A DNA stretch of 64,000 nucleotides, from the NCBI GenBank assembly GCA_934141605.1, contig CAKPCL010000007.1:6142-70141 (forward strand), written 5' to 3'. The position numbers were made by a program, and so were the translations under genes. The notes beneath the pieces are model-generated. The model was not told where the DNA came from. It was given only the letters and a program-made list of their open reading frames with translations, and did no database searches. Shown in pieces: positions 1-11,390 of this stretch. Source of the stretch: an uncultured Clostridia bacterium (GTDB taxonomy: Bacteria > Bacillota > Clostridia > TANB77 > CAG-508). Every line of letters starts with the position of its first letter. Positions within the stretch are counted from its first letter, which is position 1.

Positions 1-621
1 GTCAAATATAGGAATCATTATTCTATGGCTAAATATATCAATATAATCATTTTTAGATTCCTTTGTAATGCCTACTTCTATTAAATCTTTCATATTGTAC
101 TTTGATAATAAATTATTAGTTATATTATCATAATTAGGATTGAATCCAATATGAAAATTATTGATTATTTGTTCAGATAAGTTTCTACTTTTAAGATAGT
201 CGAGAGTTCTCTCTCCATCTATATTTTTAGTTTTTAAATTATTCTCGCAAATAGTAATTGCATCTTTTAGAATGTTAGATAATGTCTTTTGTTTCTTTTG
301 TTCTTCGGTTAGAGGCATTTTATTGTTTTGTGAAAGGACAATATTCAAATGTTGTATATCTATTGCTTTTTGCATAGCTTCTACTGTGCTTATTGCATTA
401 TGATTTATTTCTGTTTCATATTTTTGGATAAATGATACAACATTTCCTCCAGAGCCACAAGCAAAACATTTTGCAATACCTTTGCTAGTGTTTACCATCA
501 TAGAAGGATGCGTATCATTATGAAAAGGGCAAGTACATTTATTTCTAGTAACCTTTAGTCCATAGTATTCAAGAATATTTACTATATTAGAACTTGATAA
601 TATCTCATCATAAGCACTCAT
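1..621 (-). CDS. DNA primase, N-terminal CHC2 zinc-finger part (gene runs past position 1)
   Basis: Not in ORF track because it is cut by the window edge. Manual translation from ATG at 621: MSAYDEILSSSNIVNILEYYGLKVTRNKCTCPFHNDTHPSMMVNTSKGIAKCFACGSGGNVVSFIQKYE. This matches the CHC2 primase zinc finger pattern (CxCPFHxDxxPS ... CFxCG). The ATG overlaps the stop of the upstream ORF (ATGA). Confidence 0.75.
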   Translation of the reverse strand, partial: MSAYDEILSSSNIVNILEYYGLKVTRNKCTCPFHNDTHPSMMVNTSKGIAKCFACGSGGNVVSFIQKYETEINHNAISTVEAMQKAIDIQHLNIVLSQNNKMPLTEEQKKQKTLSNILKDAITICENNLKTKNIDGERTLDYLKSRNLSEQIINNFHIGFNPNYDNITNNLLSKYNMKDLIEVGITKESKNDYIDIFSHRIMIPIFD

Positions 622-1088
622 ATATCTATTTCTTCCTTATTTTCTTCTTTATTATATTGTTTTATTTCCTGTGTGTCTTTTATCAAACTTAATATATATT
701 CATCATCAAATTCTCTTATTAAATTTGGATATTCTAAATAATTTTCTTTTTCTTTGTTGCCATCATAGTATTGTTCTTCATAATCATCATAACTTTCTCC
801 AATTCTTGAATATCTATAAGAATACTCATTTTCGCCTAAATAATTTAATCCTTCCATTATGGCATCAACTTCTTTATAACTACCCTCATACCATTTAAGA
901 CTATTCCAACCAAAATAAATTTGATTTTTTCCTTCTTGCTTTATATCACATTCCTCTAGAAGATTGTAATCTTTGTTATCCTCTCCTAAATATTTTTTCA
1001 CAAATTCTTTTAATTCTTCATAACCATCTTTACTTGTTATAATTCTAATATCTGATCTATACCCCATTTTCATTACCCCCATTATCAA
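618..1088 (-). CDS. hypothetical acidic protein, paralog of 1057..1449 (likely start ATG at 1067)
   Basis: ORF track. Shares N-terminal IRIITxKxGYEE and IYFxW motifs with the next ORF. GGGGG Shine-Dalgarno lies 7 nt before the ATG at 1067. Stop overlaps the primase ATG. Confidence 0.55.
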   Translation of the reverse strand: MIMGVMKMGYRSDIRIITSKDGYEELKEFVKKYLGEDNKDYNLLEECDIKQEGKNQIYFGWNSLKWYEGSYKEVDAIMEGLNYLGENEYSYRYSRIGESYDDYEEQYYDGNKEKENYLEYPNLIREFDDEYILSLIKDTQEIKQYNKEENKEEIDI

Positions 1089-1449
1089 TTTGTTTTAATA
1101 ATCTTATAGTTTCTTTATCATTGAATTCACAAGTCATTGAAGGCATTGGAATATCCTTATATTCATCTTCTAATAGAGTATTATCGTATAACTTAATATA
1201 ATTTCTATCAATAATACATACTCTTTGTGTTATATTTTTGTTTATAATAACAGTTAATAATTTTTTTATAAGTCTAAAATATTTAGGATTATCCCACTTA
1301 AAAAAATATATATCATTGATGTATTTGCAAGTAGTATCATTTACTATATTTTTTGTTAATTTCTTATTATTATGAGATCGTAAAAAACTCATAATTTCTT
1401 CATATCCTTTTTTAGTTGTTATAATTCTGATTTGTTGTTGCATAATCAT
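1057..1449 (-). CDS. hypothetical protein, paralog of 618..1088 (likely start at 1443)
   Basis: ORF track; MQQQIRIITTKKGYEE...IYFFKWDNPKY. Translationally coupled to the flanking ORFs. Confidence 0.55.
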   Translation of the reverse strand: MIMQQQIRIITTKKGYEEIMSFLRSHNNKKLTKNIVNDTTCKYINDIYFFKWDNPKYFRLIKKLLTVIINKNITQRVCIIDRNYIKLYDNTLLEDEYKDIPMPSMTCEFNDKETIRLLKQIDNGGNENGV

Positions 1450-1832
1450 ATCTCCATTTCCAATAAATTTTTAATTTCTTTTTCTATTTGTGAATCATCT
1501 CTATTACTTATAAACAATAAAAAGCAATCCTTTTTCTTTGGATTGTATATTGTAAGAAGTATTTTTGTATGTTTTCTTAATAACTCAACAAATTCTGCTA
1601 ATTCCTTTGTTGTATAATTATCTTTAAGTTTAAAATCTACATATTTTATTATATTGAATGATTTTGTATATCTTCCTGCAACTGTAAATGCCTCTCTTGT
1701 TATCATTGTGTTTTTATCTATTTGCTCAAAATATAAATCATCATATAATAAATAGTAAGTTCCTTCTTTTGCTTTGTCAGACACTAATGCCCTAAAATCT
1801 TCAAAATTGTAAATTATATTGCTTTCTATCAT
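1446..1832 (-). CDS. hypothetical protein
   Basis: ORF track, 128 aa. GAGGGA Shine-Dalgarno upstream. Stop overlaps the next start. Confidence 0.5.
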   Translation of the reverse strand: MIESNIIYNFEDFRALVSDKAKEGTYYLLYDDLYFEQIDKNTMITREAFTVAGRYTKSFNIIKYVDFKLKDNYTTKELAEFVELLRKHTKILLTIYNPKKKDCFLLFISNRDDSQIEKEIKNLLEMEI

Positions 1833-1856
1833 AGTTTCCCTCTTTTCTCACAAATG

Positions 1857-1883
1857 AAAAAAGAGTGGGAGTTTCACCCACTC
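1857..1883 (-). terminator. Rho-independent terminator after adhesin gene
   Basis: Minus strand reads GAGTGGGTGAAACTCCCACTC followed by TTTTTT, immediately after the stop at 1887. Confidence 0.7.
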
Positions 1884-1886
1884 AAA

Positions 1887-9633: not shown

Positions 9634-9713
9634 TGAAAAATTCTCCTTTCTCTTAATATTTTATTTTTTATACCTTATGGATATGGCATAAGAAACACCT
9701 CCTCTACTATATA

Positions 9714-10529
9714 TTAAATTTCTATTTCACTATTATCTGGTATAAAAAAAGAAGGTGTTGATACATCCCTCGTTAATTCGTTTTCTACACTCTTATAATA
9801 GTAGTTAATAAAATTTTCAATTTGATTATCTGTTCCTTTATATTGATTCTCCCTATTTTTGCAATCATTATACATTTGAATCAACTTATCTCTACTAACC
9901 TTATTAGATAAATAGAACAGTCTATTTTTTACCATTAATGCAATAATGTATGTTATATCTTTAATTCTATCCAAGTTTTCAGAAGATATATATTGCATAC
10001 TTTCTTTTGAATAAAACATTTCATATCTTTTTAATGCAACAATTATTTCATTATATTCAACATTTATAAATTCTTCTGGAATTTCTTTTTCTTTATCTTT
10101 GTCTATTATATAATTAAATAATCTATCTATCTTCTTATTATTTATATTATTATCTATTATATTATTATATTGTCCTTTTTGGGACATACCCTCTGTCCTA
10201 TCTATCGCATAGGGGTATGTCCTGTTTATCGTATAGGGTGTATCATTAGGATAAATTCTTCGTTGTATAATTTCTCCTTTATCATTCTTTATTATATCTA
10301 AACATACAAATCCTAATGATTTTAAATGCGATACCCATTTTGAAATAGTGTGTGGTTGTGCATTTAATAATCTTCCTAAATAATTATTCGATGCATAACA
10401 ATATCCTTCTTTATTGGATAGAACAGTTATTATAGCATATAACAACTTTTCATTAGCCTTAATCTTTTCATTGAATAAAACAGTTGCAGGAATGATTGCA
10501 TAATATCCTATTTTATTTTCTTCATTCAT
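9714..10529 (-). CDS. helix-turn-helix protein, replication-initiator/DnaD-like N-terminus
   Basis: GYYAIIPATVLFNEKIKANEKLLYAIITVLSNKEGYCYASNNYLGRLLNAQPHTISKWVSHLKSLGFV is typical of plasmid/phage/ICE HTH replication organisers. Start is MNEENK at 10529 after AAGGAG. Confidence 0.55.
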   Translation of the reverse strand: MNEENKIGYYAIIPATVLFNEKIKANEKLLYAIITVLSNKEGYCYASNNYLGRLLNAQPHTISKWVSHLKSLGFVCLDIIKNDKGEIIQRRIYPNDTPYTINRTYPYAIDRTEGMSQKGQYNNIIDNNINNKKIDRLFNYIIDKDKEKEIPEEFINVEYNEIIVALKRYEMFYSKESMQYISSENLDRIKDITYIIALMVKNRLFYLSNKVSRDKLIQMYNDCKNRENQYKGTDNQIENFINYYYKSVENELTRDVSTPSFFIPDNSEIEI

Positions 10530-10623
10530 TGTATGTATCACTCCTTTTGCCAACAAGAATTATTGCATATAATAATAATGAAACATTAGCACCTATAAAT
10601 AATCCTAATATAAATTGCCACAT
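10522..10623 (-). CDS. 33-aa hydrophobic peptide, coupled to the HTH gene
   Basis: Manual: MWQFILGLFIGANVSLLLYAIILVGKRSDTYNE. AGAGGTGA Shine-Dalgarno. Its TGA overlaps the downstream ATG (ATGAATGA). Confidence 0.35.
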   Translation of the reverse strand: MWQFILGLFIGANVSLLLYAIILVGKRSDTYNE

Positions 10624-10838
10624 TTTTTATCACCTCTTTACTTAATTTTTCTTTATTTTTTGTGTTTTTTTGTCTTTTTTTGCTACTTTTTAAAATAGGG
10701 TTAATTTTTAAACCTATTTTAAAATTGGCATTTTTTACTCTATTTTTTTACTTTTGCCTAAAAAAAATAAACATTACCCTTTTTTCGGTAATGCCTATTA
10801 ACTGTAGCATTTCATTCAATATAAACATTCATTATTTT

Positions 10839-10969
10839 GGTTGCACTTTCGTAAACTATTCAGATTAGTAATCTTCTTAGTGCAACATTTTATACTTTTT
10901 TCTTGTAAAACACTATTTATTTCAGTATTTTCAAGGTTTTTTATAACTTTTTTGTTTAAAGGTTGCACT
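10839..10969. repeat. Three copies of GGTTGCACT (one inverted) at the element end next to cotJC
   Basis: GGTTGCACT at 10839-10847 and 10961-10969. AGTGCAAC (inverted copy) at 10879-10886. Confidence 0.5.
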
Positions 10970-10976
10970 TAAAATC

Positions 10977-11390
10977 TTATTTATCTGCTGCTAAATCTTC
11001 TTGTAAGTTTGCTATTGGGTCACCTTTACATGCAATATATGCTGCTGTAAATGGAGCACCTGCTGCTGATTGTGGATATACATCAACACCATGGTCAGTA
11101 TAATATGGTCCTAAACCTGCTTTTTCTATTTCTTCAATTGAAGCGCCTCTTGTCAATTGATGTACTATTGTTCCTACCATTTCGAGGTGAGCAAGTTCCT
11201 CCGTGCCGATATCATTAAGAATAGCTTTTGCATTTTGGTCAGGCATACCAAACCTTTGTGATAAATATCTTAAAGAAGCTGCTAATTCTCCATCAGGTCC
11301 ACCATATTGAGATATTATAACTTTTGCCAATCTTGGATCTGGGCATTTTATATTTATTGGATATTGTAATGTTTTATTATAAGTCCACAT
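10977..11390 (-). pseudogene. cotJC: cotJC (manganese-catalase-family spore coat protein), 5' fragment truncated after codon 137
   Basis: MWTYNKTLQYPINIK...GGPDGELAASLRYLSQRF...GTEELAHLEMVG...KGDPIANLQEDLAADK then stop. Full-length CotJC proteins are about 190 aa and continue with a ..ExKARxTY.. segment that is absent here. Confidence 0.8.

Follow-up and report, generated by a model that had tools for sequence, protein, structure and literature searches.

A probable integrative conjugative element with two attP-like sites of inverted polarity splits the spore coat gene cotJC at codon 136 in uncultured gut Clostridia

Interruption of cotJC at codon 136

In a 64,000-nt stretch of DNA from an uncultured Clostridia bacterium (GTDB lineage Bacteria; Bacillota; Clostridia; TANB77; CAG-508; assembly GCA_934141605.1, contig CAKPCL010000007.1, positions 6,142-70,141 of the forward strand), hereafter called the window, the cotJC gene of the cotJ sporulation operon breaks off within its coding sequence and is followed, down to position 1, by genes of another kind. 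This raises the question of what has split cotJC and whether the gene could be made whole again. We consider it quite probable that window positions 10983..1 are the left end of an integrative conjugative element of more than 34 kb, which was inserted site-specifically in codon 136 of cotJC by means of a large serine recombinase. Since the window ends within this element, predictions about its far end were checked on related sequences (loci L001 onward).

The cotJC open reading frame (ORF) lies at 10977..11390 on the minus strand and has 137 codons. An original prediction, made from the letters of the window, had the gene stop after 137 codons at 10977, and this holds for the ORF but not for the cotJC DNA itself: by comparison with intact genes the last base derived from cotJC is 10984, so that the 5' part (10984..11390, minus strand) consists of codons 1-135 and the GA of codon 136, which is Glu in intact genes, while the element supplies the DNA for Asp136, Lys137 and the stop. 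The truncation that had been proposed was borne out. The Pfam Mn_catalase model matched the 5' part with an E value of 1.8e-39 but over profile positions 1-150 of 284 only, and intact CotJC orthologues, in which the sequence runs ..QEDLAAEQKARATYE.., were found to have 196-205 aa rather than the roughly 190 aa that had been expected. Past the break close orthologues carry on ..LAAEQKARATYE.., and codons 136-196 of cotJC open with GCAAAAAGC.. This 3' part is absent from the whole 64 kb, as tblastn with a full-length orthologue gave matches to residues 1-137 at 11390..10980 only and a loose tblastn search for the 3' part within the window gave no match. Nor is ..LAADK a natural end of CotJC in relatives, because every protein ending in LAAD or LAADK that was looked up precedes element DNA. 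In 45 of 80 species representatives, which were the best 80 loci of a genome-collection scan for cotJC, the gene is uninterrupted. The closest uninterrupted relative, L012, has 92-93% nucleotide identity. Identical junction sequences occur in dozens of independent assemblies from different studies and therefore chance or an assembly artefact is an unlikely cause of the break.

The Glu of codon 136 aligns with a conserved Glu of the solved manganese catalases 4R42 and 1JKU, and a conserved His (..EVVHFQ..) of the orthologues aligned with them is also missing from the 5' part. We take both residues to be manganese ligands, as in the L. plantarum enzyme, and because both are lost the CotJC fragment should be inactive while the element is inserted. 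Insertion at the codon of this Glu would mean that each excision switches the enzyme from an inactive to an intact form.

The two ends of the element

On other contigs, proteins ending in ..LAAD have downstream of them two convergent genes for large serine recombinases of 507 and about 520 aa, in which Pfam finds the domain order Resolvase, Recombinase and zinc-ribbon; the two paralogues are 27-28% identical to each other. In L098-L106 the 520-aa and 507-aa recombinase genes are followed, about 50 nt past the stop, by cotJC codons 135/136-195 and then by chromosomal genes. The 75-bp segment beside the window junction, described below, recurs reverse-complemented beside the recombinase end in L094, L097 and L111. 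Furthermore, both ends of the element are present together on four metagenome contigs of 87-160 kb, among them OPCV01000044, OGCN01000062 and VOFC01004072, and on all four a pattern for the end half-sites matches twice, on opposite strands, once beside the cotJC 5' part and once beside the cotJC 3' part. The shared segment, the four contigs with two matches and the complementary halves of cotJC lead us to conclude that the two ends belong to one element. The cotJC 3' part and the integrase had been predicted to lie at the other end of the element, and that is where they were found in relatives, both in L098-L106 and on the contigs with both ends.

Genes at the near end and conjugation functions

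The window side of the element was predicted to encode, from about 10980 to 1, a helix-turn-helix (HTH) protein, a class B sortase, a giant adhesin and a primase in place of sporulation functions, and all of these were recovered, the sortase scoring just under the class B cut-off. All four genes are on the minus strand. The first sizeable one encodes an HTH_36 protein (9714..10556; Pfam HTH_36, E 1.5e-8) and has an equal position in L001-L009. It is followed by the class B-like sortase (8601..9386; Pfam Sortase; TIGR03064, 139.8 bits against a cut-off of 153.75), by a surface adhesin of 1680 aa that contains 13 SpaA domains and has a C-terminal tail that is hydrophobic and basic (1887..6929; Pfam SpaA, E 3e-150), and by the first 207 codons of a DnaG-type primase of 793 aa (1..621; Pfam Zn_ribbon_DnaG and DNAG_N), where the element leaves the window. 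Small ORFs are also present among these genes, one of which occurs in 1026 blocks of a public assembly index, and a terminator-like hairpin with a 13-bp stem and a T run (10766..10799, minus strand) lies just within the element end. The adhesin has 1117, 1680 or 1791 aa among the otherwise similar copies in the window and L001-L008, because its internal repeats have changed in number.

The window sequence is extended by L001-L008, of which L007 is 99.4% identical to it over 11 kb. Beyond the window start these loci carry the full primase gene and genes for a VirD4/TraG-like coupling protein, a TrbC-like protein and a PrgI-like protein; the precomputed Pfam matches are T4SS-DNA_transf and TraG-D_C for the coupling protein, PrgI, and a weak match to TrbC. 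The presence of the primase, coupling protein, TrbC-like and PrgI-like genes argues for a conjugative element rather than a prophage.

Anatomy of the junction and the two orientations

The attachment site attL (site S1; 10962..11006, minus strand) was delimited by comparison with intact cotJC and with other junctions. It consists of the cotJC arm, the centre AGA (10986..10984), of which GA would be the crossover, and a half-site h1 made of TAAATAAGATTTTAA and GTGCAAC (10983..10962). Adjoining h1 is a 75-bp segment, M (10961..10887), which has a conserved core TTGAAAnTACTGAAA and is placed between two half-sites of one polarity class. Next comes an internal attP-like site, S2 (10840..10886, minus strand), of the form GTTGCAC-N15-TCT-N15-GTGCAAC, whose polarity is inverted relative to attL. 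Read from the cotJC 5' part the order in the window is thus AGA, h1, M, h2 reversed (10886..10865), TCT, h3 (10861..10840) and the body of the element. Every half-site of the element, counted from the 3-nt centre, is 15 nt followed by GTGCAAC, and 3 of the 7 copies of GTGCAAC in the window fall in the 129 nt of this region. The half-sites h1 and h2, at the two ends of M, are preceded by AGA, and h3, at the HTH_36 end of the body, and h4, at its recombinase end, are preceded by TCT. In cotJC the 5' arm acts as a member of the TCT class and the 3' arm as a member of the AGA class, and every site observed has one half-site of each class. The intact attB in cotJC reads ..GCAGCAGA(A/G)CAAAAAGC... 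A host with GCTGCTGA (..GCTGA..) and a divergent lineage with the centre CGA leave GA as the sole sequence common to all sites, and GA is therefore the likely crossover dinucleotide.

A junction census was made by pattern matching of both end half-sites and gave 58 relevant metagenome hits. In these, h3 was joined to h2 in 18 cases, to the cotJC 3' part in 9 and never to h1, and h4 was joined to the cotJC 3' part in 26 cases, to h1 in 5 and never to h2. The joint of h3 to the cotJC 3' part is also found in L001 and L002. The element is thus present in both orientations, and whichever attP-like site is broken up in one configuration was seen intact inside the element in the other. This joining pattern is what two alternative integration sites on one circle would predict. 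A divergent lineage, in which the 507-aa recombinase has only 67% identity, keeps this two-site layout together with the M core, which makes it unlikely that the layout is accidental.

A probable explanation is that the circular form of the element would carry two attP-like sites, h4|h1 and h2|h3, of opposite polarity and about 120 bp apart, which flank M and each combine one half-site of M with one from an end of the body. Recombination by a large serine recombinase, with strand exchange at GA, would insert the element into cotJC codon 136; use of h4|h1 would give the configuration of the window and use of h2|h3 the inverted one, so that the choice of site would set the orientation, and the attP-like site that is not used would stay inside the element, in the window at 10886..10840. 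It is because the two sites would have inverted polarity around M that the element could occur in both orientations. The right end of the window element would then lie past the window start, where cotJC codons 136-196 would come directly after the pair of paralogous recombinase genes (520 and 507 aa). Excision by recombination between attL and attR would restore the cotJC frame exactly. In silico, the cotJC 5' part of the window was fused at GA with each of four 3' parts, and every fusion was an ORF of 198-202 aa that contains Glu136.

Three other explanations of the two orientations were tried and rejected. A palindromic crossover dinucleotide is ruled out by the shared core GA. Tandem accretion, as in cis-mobilizable elements (CIME-like), is ruled out because both ends of M fall in one polarity class and both ends of the body in the other, so that neither by itself is a normal element, and inversion of the whole insert is ruled out as M is always beside the cotJC 5' part.

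Site specificity and spread

The census includes 35 chromosomal junctions, and each of them is at cotJC codon 136. When 45 cotJC flanks of hosts were clustered at a threshold of 97% identity they fell into 27 clusters with a median pairwise identity of 78%, and the neighbouring chromosomal genes differ between hosts. Among the hosts, which are uncultured gut Clostridia, are UMGS1516 and Clostridium sp. CAG:343. The single codon, the 27 flank clusters and the different neighbours together suggest movement between species with strict site specificity, and on this indirect evidence the element appears to be in at least 27 host lineages.

The query of the genome-collection scan spanned the junction residues, as a result of which the best 80 loci are all intact at codon 136 and the scan is blind to far ends. 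The same scan exposed the host clade and other break points in cotJC. Besides the 45 representatives with an uninterrupted gene, about 15 have cotJC split near codon 62, 13 near codons 97-100 and 3 near codon 116, and in L171 there is a further break near codon 159. Wherever both halves of the gene are visible at these four further positions, inserts of 3-9 kb hold serine recombinase genes. In all, cotJC has one insertion or more in about 40% of these 80 closest representatives, a single cotJC gene is broken twice in L018, L039 and L078, and some genomes have two or three inserts in the cotJ operon.

The second insertion in the cotJ operon

The window carries another insertion in the same operon. 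The first cotJ gene, cotJA (15398..15775, minus strand; Pfam CotJA, E 1.6e-12), is followed by the 5' part of cotJB (15149..15407, minus strand), which matches positions 1-74 of 76 of the Pfam CotJB profile and terminates in the 7-bp core TGGCCTT (15155..15149); homology to the intact gene of L012 ends at 15149. At this 3' end of cotJB lies an insertion of 3.7 kb (11417..15148; Pfam Resolvase, Recombinase and Zn_ribbon_recom) with the gene for a 532-aa large serine recombinase (11439..13037, minus strand). After it comes the 27-nt tail of cotJB (..WPWEGGIN and the stop; 11390..11416, minus strand), which has a second copy of TGGCCTT (11416..11410) and whose stop overlaps the ATG of cotJC. The attB-like sequence of this insertion, GAACCATGGCCTTGGGAAGG, is uninterrupted in L012, and joining of the two halves of cotJB at TGGCCTT in silico gave a CotJB of 92 aa.

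The 27-nt tail and the cotJC 5' part are all that separates the two insertions, a gap of 433 bp (11416..10984) that agrees with the 0.43 kb of the original prediction. The element in cotJC is found with an intact cotJB in L003, L005, L006, L009 and L090, and an element in cotJB is found with an intact cotJC in L022, L028 and L049, whereas L091 has both insertions, with the conjugative element in the other orientation than in the window. As each occurs alone elsewhere, the two insertions of the window are independent, which had been proposed. It had also been proposed that full function of the operon would need both elements to be excised, and the in silico joins, which give full-length CotJB and CotJC, agree with this. 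The 3.7-kb element would have to leave on its own, and excision of both elements would rebuild the cotJ operon.

The insertion in cotJB is minimal and consists of the gene for the 532-aa serine recombinase and three small opposite-strand ORFs with no Pfam match. Its recombinase gene is co-oriented with the cotJ operon and in principle could be expressed by read-through from the cotJ promoter. In L091 there is a copy that is 81-87% identical, at the same site.

Weighing of the interpretation and its alternatives

Several observations weigh against the interpretation given above. The window ends before the element does, so that the recombinases, attR and cotJC 3' part of this copy would lie outside it, and the far end is known from relatives. 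No relaxase was recognised in the 18 kb and 16 kb that were read from the two ends, the middle of the element being outside the recovered sequence. These two arms do not overlap and the smallest contig with both ends has 86.9 kb, so the total length is bracketed at 34-87 kb only; an attempt to close the middle yielded from IMG/VR one piece of 11.8 kb only. A search of the JGI metagenome collection and IMG/VR with a gapped pattern of the recombinase end, M and the HTH end gave no contig with a circular junction, and for this reason integration from a circle with two attP sites is a step that we infer. What each of the two recombinases does, and whether excision is timed, are likewise proposals. 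In L107, h4 is joined to h2, which needs an extra inversion. Regex searches in this AT-rich DNA found no convincing sigma-E or sigma-K promoter near the recombinase genes, and the link between excision and sporulation is drawn by analogy.

In B. subtilis cotJ is expressed in the mother cell. We regard excision of the element in the sporulating mother cell as plausible, at somewhat less than even odds, by analogy with skin, SPbeta and gin; in favour of it are a layout like that of skin, SPbeta, vfbin, vrin and gin and the presence on the element of a regulator with a Spo0A_C domain near the recombination module. It is also quite possible, if tentative, that the operon is simply off in carriers, in which case cotJC would be a dispensable safe harbour from which the element exits rarely, for conjugation, the spores would be made without CotJC and CotJB, and there would be no programmed rearrangement. 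The frequency of cotJC insertions among the closest species representatives and their five positions suggest that loss of the gene is tolerated, and the negative outcome of the searches for sporulation-type promoters near the recombinases fits this as well. According to a passage in PMC11222575, which cites the work, C. difficile cotCB and cotD mutants had less catalase activity and no significant coat defect. What speaks for programmed excision instead is that the split halves keep open frames which exact joining restores, and that the mother cell excises elements of the same layout, namely skin in sigK, SPbeta in spsM, vfbin in spoVFB, vrin in spoVR and gin in gerE (PMC4191935, PMC5595907). 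That unrelated recombinases have repeatedly settled on one mother-cell operon likewise fits selection for sites that are repairable in a terminal cell. A more far-reaching version, which we think improbable, is that cotJ would be a shared landing pad for up to three or more independent recombinase elements, all of which would have to be excised in the sporulating mother cell before cotJB and cotJC are whole again, with the conjugative element launching itself at no cost from the doomed cell, the Spo0A-like regulator tying its excision or gene expression to the sporulation phosphorelay and the two inverted attP sites with M serving as an orientation or expression switch.

As to the orientations, they could have arisen after integration by in-place inversions between attL or attR and the internal site, which would flip M and the body as in a shufflon, and this we consider rather unlikely. 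The three sites do alternate in polarity, which permits inversion, and L107 and L111 share an identical 507-aa recombinase and differ in the orientation of M; in-place inversion probably explains L107. In L102, L109 and L110, from three independent assemblies, the contigs break at or within 3 nt of the crossover (..CTCAGA), as if variants coexisted in the sample, and an assembly graph would indeed branch at the crossover if several junction partners coexist in one sample. However, two inversions would be needed between the common configurations, and of the intermediates h3-h1 was never seen and h4-h2 was seen once among roughly 60 sites. Moreover, the normal partners in recombination by large serine recombinases are attP and attB, or attL and attR, and not attP and one of attL and attR. 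We therefore prefer integration through one or other of two attP-like sites. That cotJC was split by a chromosomal inversion or by misassembly and not by one inserted element is extremely improbable, for although a seryl-tRNA synthetase, an M20 peptidase and an FAD oxidase are encoded 12-16 kb in at recombinase-end loci and the middle of the insert is outside the recovered sequence, the junction recurs identically across independent studies, both ends are on single contigs and the same insert lies between different chromosomal neighbours in different hosts.

Comparison with known elements

The splitting of sporulation genes by elements that are later removed in the mother cell is a textbook example of programmed DNA rearrangement, studied for the most part on defective prophages of cultured Bacilli and C. 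difficile. Sporulation-gene-intervening elements are well established as a class, and cotJC too is already known as an integration site. A skin-like element in cotJC of Laceyella sacchari is described in a passage of Galperin et al. (bioRxiv 10.1101/2022.02.25.481979), and cotJC was named as an integration site by Abe et al. 2013, as cited in bioRxiv 10.1101/2021.11.22.469490. In these reports the same host gene is interrupted by an element that bears a recombinase, but the organisms belong to the Bacilli class and the elements are phage-like or transposon-like, and the passages concerned contain no junction anatomy, conjugative element or multi-site pattern. With skin, SPbeta, vfbin, vrin and gin the element in cotJC shares that it is a large serine recombinase element within the coding sequence of a mother-cell sporulation gene, that a recombinase gene lies at the edge beside the 3' fragment of the gene (here in relatives) and that exact excision restores the gene (here in silico). 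Like gin it is not a phage and has several serine recombinase genes. Unlike gin, which is without conjugation genes, it has them, and it stands apart from the skin, SPbeta and gin class in its pair of attP-like sites and in being found in either orientation; that its excision is timed to sporulation is here proposed by analogy. Our literature searches turned up no conjugative element among sporulation-gene-intervening elements, no natural element in which a large serine recombinase has two inverted attP sites to act on, no description of two inverted attP-like sites with two recombinase paralogues as a layout and no case of five insertion positions in one small gene. What is added to the known class is thus an apparently self-transmissible element, strict for one codon of a spore coat gene and spread through many uncultured Clostridia of the human gut. 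The layout of two inverted attP-like sites and two recombinase paralogues is directly testable in vitro, the short and well-defined sites may be useful as new recombinase/att pairs, and cotJC, with five insertion positions used by different recombinases, lends itself to the study of why mother-cell genes are targets on which mobile elements converge.

The element also resembles Tn5397 (TndX) and Tn4451 (TnpX), which are clostridial, move by large serine recombinases and have a GA crossover; the targets of TndX have a central GA and Tn5397 prefers a site within an ORF (PMC4430133). For both recombinases of the cotJC element TnpX was the best solved-structure match, over the catalytic domain only. 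The cotJC element differs from Tn5397 and Tn4451 in its two paralogues and two attP-like sites and in its coupling protein of the VirD4/TraG type. The transfer genes of Tn5397-type elements are a Tn916-type module. In Anabaena and Nostoc, heterocyst elements (in nifD, fdxN with XisF, and hupL) split genes of a terminal cell and are excised there, several are possible per operon, and XisF is a large serine recombinase. Both recombinases of the cotJC element match the XisF model weakly, far below the cut-off, while the heterocyst elements belong to another phylum and another developmental programme and are not conjugative. The element is also like the staphylococcal cassette chromosome (SCC), a site-specific island at whose edge the large serine recombinases CcrA and CcrB are encoded side by side. 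Identity of the recombinases with CcrA/CcrB was rejected, as they reach 68-119 bits with these models, for which the cut-offs are 700-900. The target of SCC is rlmH, and SCC is not self-transmissible.

Genes near the recombinase end and other observations

Adjoining the recombination module is the gene for a Spo0A-like regulator, in L098 at 5496..6224 (minus strand), which encodes 242 aa with a receiver domain and Spo0A_C and which is also present in L090-L111 and L179-L181. The Pfam Spo0A_C model matched 14 of the 14 members of this family, with a best E value of 5e-11, and many members have Asn in place of the residues of the acidic pocket. A Foldseek search with the whole model was dominated by matches to the receiver domain and so did not probe the C-terminal domain. 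Also near the recombinase end, at 3245..5454 of L098, a viperin-like radical SAM protein (NF038283, 119 bits, cut-off 180), which may have an anti-phage function, is encoded beside a LysR regulator. Upstream of the recombinases there are ORFs of 52, 67 and 144 aa, which are candidate directionality factors. The stretch from the 52-aa ORF to the first recombinase gene contains a terminator-like hairpin whose loop includes TATAAT (L098, 8345..8438; L183, 4330..4441), and a conserved ATACATATTCTT box precedes the 52-aa ORF; the hairpin and the box are kept in two divergent lineages and may be regulatory.

Further in, 12-16 kb from the recombinase end, L179 carries at 17062..20729 metabolic-looking genes, which encode a seryl-tRNA synthetase, an M20 peptidase, a ferredoxin and an FAD oxidase. 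They are not parted from the rest of the element by any att-like site, and they point either to unusual cargo or to a composite insert. A decayed copy of a cargo block of the element, without recombinases, is present at an unrelated chromosomal site on 138 contigs (L173-L178, about 10001..15800) and holds a truncated Spo0A-like gene, a truncated radical SAM gene, a LysR gene and small ORFs. P0246 was tried as a route to the middle of the element and was rejected, as it led to a decayed remnant at another locus. Finally, a pyruvate kinase gene (window 16461..17000) is upstream of cotJA and on the same strand in the window, L006, L009 and L017, whereas in L012 (10312..10849) and L027 it is downstream of cotJC and on the opposite strand, which indicates that the cotJ cassette is inverted relative to this neighbour in some species.

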